From positions 98,208,876 to 98,272,875 of the forward strand of contig NC_057718.1 of NCBI RefSeq assembly GCF_004010195.1: DNA of 64,000 bases, read 5' to 3'. A program made the translations under genes and the position numbers. Source of the DNA: Chiloscyllium plagiosum. Lineage: Eukaryota. Below, piece after piece: positions 47,101-50,100 of the stretch (its first letter is position 1; each line of letters begins with the position of its first letter). The notes under the pieces were generated by a model that saw nothing but the letters and a program-made list of their open reading frames with translations, was not told the DNA's origin and searched no databases.

Positions 47101-50100
47101 ATTCTTGTGTAATAGGCAACCCCAACTTTTGGGACTTTTGAAGGACAAAATCCTTTTTTCACAGACCCTGTTTTAATTTTAGGAGTAAGACTTGTGGGAA
47201 AAGTTTATTAGGTCTGAACTCTTTTCTCATTTAAACATCAGAACTACCGGTAGACTGCCTGGGGCAGCTGTTCCCTGCTGAATTCAGGACCATGGTCAGC
47301 AATGACTGTCATTATTGGCAGCTGCAAAAACCTGACATGGATTTCAACCCCTCAAAAGTATTACGTATGTCAAGCTCTGATGAAGAGTCATTAGACTCGA
47401 AATGTTAGCTTGCTGTCTCTCCATGGATGCTGTCTGACCCCCTGTGATCCCCAGCATTTATTGTTTTCAGTACTTAGATAAAAGTCAATTCCTAAAAGTC
47501 TGGTCTCTTTTACACAACTTTATGTGGTACGTATGAAAACCAATCTGTATGAATTTAAATATAATATTTTAATCTACTGTACAAAGAGCAAATCAAAGCA
47601 TTAGAGGTGTCTGGCTAATCTTGATCTCTGGACTCCAGATGACCTAGTGTTTATCCTTGCAACAATCCTTGCCTTGAAAATAATAGCATTCGGTGTTATT
47701 TCTTTTCGAACCTCTTTAAGGCTTTTCTCTTCCTCATCAGATATCGTTGACGCTTTATCAGATCCAAAGAAGTTTCTGTCGGTAATGGAAAAGAGAGCTG
47801 ACCAAATGAGAGCAATGGGAATCGAAACTGTACGTAAAAAATACTTAAACATTTACACTGACTAGCAAATGAATAATCTTCCTTCTGAATAAGTTCGCAA
47901 ATAGTTTATTTTCCCTCATTAATGTTAGTCAAAAGAAAAATATACCAAACAACAGATGCAAATGTCTGTTGAGGAGTTTTACATCAAACCATGGTTTCTG
48001 AGTGCAATCTTCCTAATAATGAAGAACTATTAAGAATGGATCCTTTAATATCCAACGTTACTTTCCAGTGTGTTGTACTTGTGCAGAAATTGGAGGTTTT
48101 ACTGCATTTTAAGTTGATATATAATGCGGTTTGTCAATACAAGGAATCTAAGAATTATGTTATCCAGACAATTTTGTAACTTGTCACTGATTGAGATTTC
48201 CCTGGCTTATTTTCAAGCCTAGGAGCTGGTGTGTTTCAAAATTAAAAGAATTTTAATTGCCCACATTTTTCTTTCTTTCTTAAGTGCACTCTGTGGATCA
48301 CACAGAATGGAATCTTTAATCTCTGGCTTGTGCTCAGTCATCACATTGTGGGTTGAATCAGCCGGGTTTTTAACTCATGAATATATCCTTGATGGATTTG
48401 AAAGGGAGGTTAATGACCAGATCGTAATCACTGGATTATCCGGACTCTAAAGCAAACTCAACTTCCAGGTTGGGAGCCTGGTAGTGATCAAGTGGGGACA
48501 TCAGAGATGGAGATATTCCTGGAGATGACCAGTTCAGAAACTGCCTCCAAGATCTCCATCCAATTAAGATTGTCTGGCAGAACAGGGAACAGACAGGTCC
48601 ACCAGTGATGTTTAGTTGACAGAATCACCAGGAGAGATGGTGCCACCAGGATAGGTCAGAAAGCACAAGGACACCTGAAGTTGGAATTGGCTTCTGAAGA
48701 GTTGGTGAAGTCTCTAAATAAAGAAATGTTGTCATAGTCAGGTCATGGAAGTAGAGAGGCAGCCTTTCCTCAGGATTGACTGGGGGCCATAACTCTATAT
48801 ACTACAGCTTTGAGTTTTAAAGGAGAATTCTCTGGACCCAATGCCCATTTCTGGGAGGTCATTTGTAAGTAACTGCTGAACTTAAACCTCAACACAGGAG
48901 CATTCAGGCCTGTTAGTTATCAGCAAGGTCCCAGTGGTATAACCAGGTAGACCCCAAGTTGAAGCTAATTAATGATCTACTCTGCCAATCAGATCCCCAC
49001 CTCCGGCAAGATTGGTTGGAGTCAGAATCATATTGGGAAGATGTTCTTTAACAAAATGTTCTCACTTTGCTCCTGGTTCACATTGTAAACATATCTTTTG
49101 GGTGATCATGAAGATTCAATCTTAGATGCATGCAATTATGATAGTAAAATGAAGAGTGTGTAGGTTATTTTGATCTTAGAGTAGGATAAAAGGTTGGCAC
49201 AATATCGAGGGCCAAAGGACCTATACTGTGCTGCACTGTTCTAAATAGATGCTGAACGCAGATCGGATGAGGCTGAAATGCGATAACACCAGCATCAAAC
49301 AACAGCCAACTTTCATGTGCTAAACTCTTGAGTAAGTTACTGCAGGGTTGTCCCAGAGACAGACATCCTAATCCAATTGTTTTAGAGAGCCAGGAAAGAA
49401 AAAAGATTATTGCAGGAAACAAACCTTTATTTCAGGCCTAAATCAATTTATCAAAATCAGCAGTTTATATTTACCACCCCTTTATTTCACCTCCAGCTCA
49501 GGCACACATTTTTAAATGTGATTCTGCAGGAATTGCCAAGCAGCTTTTGGTGGCTGAGTTGTAATTCATTAGCAGAATAGTTTTTGGAAATGTCATTAAT
49601 CTCTAATCATGCAGCACCATTGCATGACTATGTACTAACCTGCCAAAAGCAGAGATGAAGTGAACTGGTAGGGGCATGTGTACCATTCCATTAGATCCTA
49701 AGATCTAGGAGTAGAAGTAGGCCATTCAGCCCATCAAGTCTGCTCTGTCAATGAGTGAGATCATGGCTGATCTGATAATCCTCAGTTCCACTAATCCACA
49801 CAATCCTTAATTACCTTACTGATTGCTTTCTTTAACATCCATACAATAGTTTATAGAGGAGTAAAGCAAGAATTGATGGAAATATTCAGAGGGGTGCTGA
49901 AAGATTTGGTGAAGATTTCACTCACACTTCAATATGATCAAACATGTTAAGTTAGTTCGCAGGAGCAATATAAAAGAGATTATGAAATTGAGCTAGATAA
50001 GGAGATATTGCACCAACTGACTCAGCGCTTGGTCACAGAAGTTAGATTTAAGAAGCATCCTAAGCAGGAAAAAGAGCTGGAGAGGTTTAAGGAGGGAATT

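Follow-up and report, generated by a model that had tools for sequence, protein, structure and literature searches.

An intronic hammerhead motif in Chiloscyllium plagiosum is very probably the decayed remnant of a Penelope-like element

An intron of a phospholipase C-beta (PLC-beta) gene in Chiloscyllium plagiosum carries, on the sense strand, a minimal type I hammerhead motif whose catalytic core is intact. Does this motif act as a ribozyme in the host pre-mRNA, or is it what a retroelement left behind? We examined the question in a window of 64,000 nucleotides, the whole stretch of DNA analyzed, and in family copies, related species, and RNA reads. A sequence-only reading of the window had proposed that the motif might cleave the pre-mRNA and had offered an inactive transposable element relic as its own alternative. 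The relic is the better-supported reading. Specifically, we consider it very probable that the motif lies in a decayed pseudo-LTR (pLTR) stub of a Neptune-type Penelope-like element (PLE) that is passively transcribed, decays neutrally, and undergoes negligible cleavage. Comparisons with published systems draw on passages of the papers cited.

The motif occupies 47371-47412 of the plus strand. Its letters and coordinates, read directly, are as the sequence-only reading gave them. The 5' strand of stem I (47371-47376) leads into the CUGAUGA box (47377-47383), a bulged A (47384), a 5-bp stem II closed by a 4-nt loop (47385-47389 with 47394-47398), and the GAAA box (47399-47402). There follow AUGU, a 4-nt palindromic helix III that is CpG-decayed at 47403 (47402-47405), U17 as the end of the GUU triplet (47406), and the 3' strand of stem I (47407-47412); the predicted cut is at 47406/47407. 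The CUGAUGA box and the bulged A are the same as in the repeat family described below, and a bulged nucleotide is typical of PLE minimal hammerheads (min-HHRs; PMC4209133). Thus, the catalytic boxes CUGANGA and GAAA, the NUH site, helices I and II, and the bulged nucleotide before G10.1-C11.1 are all present in this copy.

The hammerhead motif at 47371-47412 is beyond chance. A structural descriptor comprising both boxes, stem II, the UH site, and stem I, applied to both strands of the window, matched this one place. Across 200 approximate dinucleotide shuffles, three loose exact-core matches arose in total, and none combined a stem I of at least 6 bp with a stem II of at least 5 bp. The box pattern alone was not significant (3 matches vs 1.94 expected), nor was the folding energy of the motif (z -1.06), and a search with Rfam covariance models, the check that the sequence-only reading had proposed, returned no hammerhead match at the gathering threshold or at E<=10. 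The missing Rfam match and the insignificant folding energy fit a minimal motif without helix III.

Sense orientation follows from the host gene. The exon at 44468-44680 matches PLC-beta structures in the PDB, the top match being a cephalopod PLC-beta (E 4.9e-22) and the next ones beta-3 and then beta-2. Beta-4 is absent from the 19 PDB matches to this exon. Exact short PLC motifs occur on the plus strand at 2112, 30607-30664, 33542, 43057, and 43171. The exon that ends at 44684 (before GT) and the exon at 47741-47829 (flanked by AG and GT) join in frame across a GT..AG, phase 1 intron of 3,056 nt (44685-47740); the 30-aa exon on its own had no match in a PDB search. Because the host PLC-beta gene runs on the plus strand and these exons join in frame, the motif lies within an intron, in sense orientation, with the exon 329 nt downstream. 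A PLCB4 exon about 330 nt downstream had been claimed: the PLC-beta exon, the distance, and the sense intron stand, and the isoform name PLCB4 is presumptive. Runs of N at 35364-35412 and 39772-40271 mark assembly gaps within the gene.

Where, then, did the motif come from? A search of the 3.56-Gb genome with 47300-47470 produced 2629 candidates, 40 of which were scored and yielded 47 matches; of these 47, the best 41, counting the window copy itself, show 90-100% identity. Non-self matches start at about 47373, and the alignment to related loci spans 47373 to ~47473. Longer family copies extend up to ~730 nt upstream into a decayed ORF on the same strand as the motif. This ORF specifies a GIY-YIG-type domain that has paired cysteines, preceded by a Cx4CxxC linker, and it ends ~240 nt upstream of the hammerhead core. 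The pattern of a C-terminal GIY-YIG with CCHH cysteines is present in four loci, with the linker intact in L010 and L012 and partly decayed in L008 and L038. In the ESM Atlas, the endonuclease peptide groups at 0.97 with GIY-YIG clusters, 55% and 22% of whose members carry the family. Pfam returned no match for 2+8+3 peptides, PLE endonuclease-like peptides included.

These features point to a known group of elements. Neptune EN+ PLEs possess a C-terminal GIY-YIG with two cysteine pairs between its motifs, and a CX2-5CxxC linker marks Neptune and Nematis (Craig et al. 2021, PMC8557442). Placement in Neptune rather than Nematis is suggested by the linker pattern and the vertebrate host. Judged from its sequence, 47373-47473 of the plus strand is a pLTR stub of ~101 nt from a Neptune-type Penelope element, 5'-truncated and tail-less, and no host ribozyme. 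By all sequence features examined, its hammerhead is a PLE min-HHR. A minimal type I hammerhead of Penelope type was what the sequence-only reading had recognized, and the family, by joining the motif to a GIY-YIG-like ORF end, bears it out.

The ends of the stub recur among its relatives. We mapped ends at 59 distinct loci (61 minus 2 duplicates), one of which, L042, is mis-anchored. Measured from the core, 3' ends are bimodal: 24 of the 59 fall at +90-99 and another 23 at +125-134. At 23 of the 59 loci the 5' end falls within -12 to +2 of the core, a figure biased upward because half of the loci were chosen by likeness to the window copy, and 25 of 59 carry an inverted piece upstream. The stub has its 5' end at the stem I palindrome and its 3' end in the tail-less class, and so represents the shortest common form. 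Downstream of the motif lies a predicted pLTR hairpin (47424-47460, plus strand) with sequence common to other PLE relics in the window. No target-site duplication was found next to the stub, the best candidate being a 6-mer that adjoins neither end. The 3' end of the stub is a pyrimidine-rich run that terminates in CAG at 47470 (47460-47533, plus strand), and a GTACGT hexamer at 47527 resembles the real donor at 47830. Together, the CAG and the hexamer could define a 56-nt frame-shifting pseudo-exon.

Stem I merits separate treatment. The six perfect pairs of the sequence-only reading are present, but only four of the six belong to the element: the family stem I is 4 bp, and the two extra pairs come from 47371-47372, bases outside the family homology that would be flank or a tiny junction fold-back. 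Stem I reaches at least 6 bp at 6 of 53 loci. We asked whether stems of this length arise routinely by fold-back, an idea that was not upheld: 17 genomic copies start where the window copy does, among 219 non-family starts counted, which is near chance, and 2 of those 17 (L018, L021) are inverted junctions. At four loci, the self-complementary AGCT of stem I is the point where inverted 5' pieces are joined: the junctions of L030 and L032 form a palindrome centered on AGCT, and those of L018 and L021 fold back to the stem I 3' strand. The ribozyme helix may be a template-switch site for the cDNA.

The stub has company in the window. A 222-bp inverted repeat (85%) at 10301-10764 bears in each arm a hammerhead that belongs to another PLE family and has an AGCU palindrome; the copy at 10379 (minus strand) has both boxes intact, and that at 10686 (plus strand) has one core change. 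Decayed PLE pLTR stubs of several families lie in the host gene at 891, 24197, 26078, 57361, and 57801 on the plus strand and at 4513, 7822, 13050, and 14747 on the minus strand. Decayed ORF pieces at 23632-24170 and 37713-38445 resemble PLE endonuclease ends and had no Pfam match. We take the inverted pair at ~23.8-24.2 kb to be Poseidon-like and the minus-strand piece near 38 kb to be Neptune-like. With weaker matches counted, relics of several families are about equally numerous on the two strands, and a same-family sense partner is not among them. The motif was said to be the best-preserved sense-strand copy in the window, and it does top the 7 relics of a relaxed census, no other having both an intact core and perfect stems.

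Is such preservation unusual genome-wide? The two boxes occur with this perfect stem II at 454 genomic places. The exact family motif, apart from the helix-III dinucleotide, is present at 80 places, with CG at 24, TG at 24, CA at 20, and another dinucleotide at 12. Thus, the intact ACGU helix III that the window copy lost is kept in 24 of 80 otherwise exact copies, and the CpG products TG and CA account for 44 of the 80; the family helix III is palindromic. TG and CA are symmetric (24 vs 20, p=0.65). Their equal numbers indicate CpG deamination on both strands, and the AUGU of the window copy is one such product.

The catalytic core likewise shows no sign of restraint. Copies with anchors on either side of the upstream box number 308; in the first 100 rows, tallied by hand, 52 are unchanged. 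Changes number 8 at C3, 10 at U4, 13 at G5, 7 at A6, 9 at N7, 12 at G8, 6 at A9, and 3 at the bulge. Catalytic positions differ in 56 of 600 cases (9.3%) vs 9 of 100 (9%) for the free N7 (Fisher p=1.0). Across the family, the core changes as fast as neutral sequence, and at that rate ~38% of copies are expected by chance to retain the 11 non-CpG core bases. The window copy retains all core bases, the CpG-prone C11.1 and G12 among them. It has about 5-6 differences from the family in 101 nt, vs a family rate of 8.5% (P=0.24), and so is somewhat less diverged than average, but its differences are not unusually few. Its stem II loop is 4 nt vs 5 nt in the family, one C having been lost after 47391; patterns with a 4-nt loop match 0 and 1 copies, which simply reflects the 5-nt loop of the family, and these counts are no measure of rarity. 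The preservation of the window copy is not special. The same 454 copies and neutral core decay run counter to special preservation, leave the proposed pre-mRNA cleavage without support, and favor the inactive relic.

The insertion is not confined to C. plagiosum. For two related species, contigs covering the unique upstream flank continue into the stub (as far as 47411 and 47449), and contigs of the same relatives also extend from 47442-47444 through the exon; the insertion is therefore shared. The loss of the loop base appears to be shared as well, given gap totals that leave no room for it. The relatives' pieces differ from the window by 17 of 543, 21 of 585, 26 of 859, and 34 of 841 letters; at this divergence of 3-4%, a 42-nt motif has no power for a conservation reading. 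In RNA run X21, 12 partial reads were recovered, none with 99% or higher identity, none on the exon or flanks, and none locus-specific; run X22 yielded 0 reads. These reads bear on neither expression nor cleavage of the locus.

Can the copy cut RNA? In predicted folds, stems I and II form locally, with p>0.9 for the motif in isolation and 0.2-0.9 when longer contexts are folded, and the stable monomer helix III that typifies domesticated intronic hammerheads is absent. Specifically, the A15.1-U16.1 pair has probability 0.0 in 5 of 5 monomer contexts, consistent with the suggestion in the sequence-only reading that a dimer is needed. Positions 15.2/16.2 are palindromic in the family, and the window copy has U.G wobbles. 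A double hammerhead is estimated at +7.6 kcal/mol relative to two monomers for the window copy vs +4.1 for intact copies, and at +5.5 kcal/mol for a heterodimer of the window copy with an intact family copy; these are nearest-neighbor secondary-structure estimates that ignore tertiary contacts and proteins. The change to AUGU is thus predicted to weaken the dimer, as the sequence-only reading had surmised, and a search of both strands of the 64-kb window uncovered no second same-family sense copy, in keeping with the tandem partner it had reported missing. Published passages describe no detectable cleavage by a single min-HHR and only low cleavage by multimers, dimers included (PMC4209133). 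For the PLE hammerhead of Anolis, cleavage required the protein of the element, and RNA-seq in that work turned up no reads that stop at the cut site (PMC11167929). Given such behavior, a lone, CpG-weakened copy should be silent. The lone copy is probably unable to cut RNA by itself, and in these models the stub is most likely inactive.

The notion is that a Neptune-type Penelope-like retrotransposon left a short pLTR copy in the PLC-beta intron. If published PLE enzymology applies, reverse transcription would have begun at an internal start before an optional ~30-nt tail and halted just beyond the hammerhead, at the self-complementary stem I. The product would be the anatomy seen here, a stub that holds little beyond the ribozyme motif and its trailing hairpin. 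The min-HHR of the parent element would work either with the aid of an element protein or by pairing of tandem pLTRs into a dimer. The lone copy would be carried passively in PLC-beta pre-mRNA and, with no helix III, no partner nearby, and a CpG change weakening any dimer, would undergo no meaningful cleavage.

Four features weigh against this passive relic: the intact core, the canonical-length stem I, the nearby exon, and persistence in three species. They, and a partner that may exist elsewhere in the gene or in trans, invite other readings. Chance resemblance to a hammerhead could cite the missing Rfam match and the folding z of -1.06, but the shuffles gave 0 strict matches, and repeat-family members that bear the same motif beside a PLE endonuclease refute it; its probability is close to nil. 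A domesticated ribozyme, comparable to the amniote RECK hammerhead or to CPEB3, would tune PLC-beta splicing or output by co-transcriptional cleavage. The sense strand, the position 329 nt before an exon, the 6-bp stem I, and the copies at the orthologous position of the two relatives all suit such a role. Yet the monomer lacks helix III, the CpG transition and the loop deletion are decay-like changes, hundreds of copies are equally intact, relics lie on both gene strands in similar numbers, and relatives only 3-4% diverged in the flanks are expected to share the copy without selection. We regard domestication as highly improbable.

Alternatively, the relic might be conditionally active, cleaved in trans, rarely and incidentally, with the help of a PLE protein or of an RNA of the same family, be it a PLE transcript or a second intronic copy. 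The core and cleavage triplet are intact, the heterodimer is less unfavorable than the homodimer (+5.5 vs +7.6 kcal/mol), the 12 partial reads of X21 show paralogous copies in RNA, and the Poseidon element offers a precedent for protein-assisted cleavage (PMC11167929). The heterodimer nevertheless remains unfavorable, the family is ~8.5% diverged with no intact autonomous copy among the loci compared, and, in the studies cited above, dimer activity was low and no RNA-seq read stopped at the Poseidon cut site (PMC4209133, PMC11167929). Conditional activity is therefore unlikely. A bolder version holds that thousands of sense intronic pLTR stubs are latent half-ribozymes, that Neptune RNA or RNP supplies the helix-III partner or a chaperone and so cuts host pre-mRNAs in trans, and that the PLC-beta copy, with its 6-bp stem I and its presence in three species, is an early domestication. 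We consider this a long shot.

The preferred reading, a passively carried, decaying stub, makes the intact-looking intronic hammerhead in the C. plagiosum genome an expected by-product of a family of thousands. As it stands, the copy matters little: it adds another vertebrate case to a retroelement motif already on record. Were such stubs to cut in vivo, they would provide the first in vivo activity for PLE min-HHRs and would show a route from transposon ribozymes to the conserved intronic hammerheads of amniotes.

How does the copy compare with known systems? Among vertebrate ribozymes, the RECK and C10orf118 hammerheads (PMC6155905, PMC10761166) and the CPEB3 ribozyme (PMC10919898) likewise reside in introns on the sense strand. 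As described in those passages, they are deeply conserved and their cleavage is shown, whereas the copy here is a lineage-specific, multi-copy stub without a monomer helix III. Animal non-LTR retrozymes (bioRxiv 10.64898/2026.07.22.740005) resemble it in being pLTR-derived with a type I hammerhead. They are present in a chondrichthyan, and dispersed monomers occur, many of them intronic. Retrozymes, however, are head-to-tail tandem arrays; within the window the copy lacks this trait and stands alone as a monomer, and most of its relatives occur singly or as inverted pairs. Our literature search found no published shark or PLCB4 hammerhead, and paper supplements may list shark min-HHRs; one review on hammerheads, Penelope, and sharks holds no shark data in its passages.

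The closest likeness is with the PLEs themselves. Cervera and de la Pena 2014 (PMC4209133) describe min-HHRs in the pLTRs of metazoan PLEs, with cartilaginous fish unnamed among the hosts in the passages cited. Stem II is 7-8 bp in the Schistosoma families of that work vs 5 bp here, and the junction-extended 6-bp stem I and CpG-decayed palindrome also set this copy apart. Poseidon PAc of Anolis has a hammerhead in its pLTR (Frangione et al. 2024, PMC11167929) and, like the family here, two classes of 3' end ~30 nt apart, which that study explains by internal starts of reverse transcription. PAc belongs to a different clade, and its start loop is AC-rich vs a U-rich sense-strand end here. Neptune PLEs are described with a hammerhead in the pLTR, inverted 5'-truncated pieces, and an optional 30-40-bp tail (PMC8557442). 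The family here shares the Neptune endonuclease, linker, pLTR hammerhead, inverted pieces, and optional tail, although the window copy, unlike those elements, is only ~101 nt of pLTR. Overall, the architecture of pLTR, tail, and inversion agrees with both accounts (PMC8557442, PMC11167929), and the copy is a further vertebrate case of the PLE minimal hammerheads already described.
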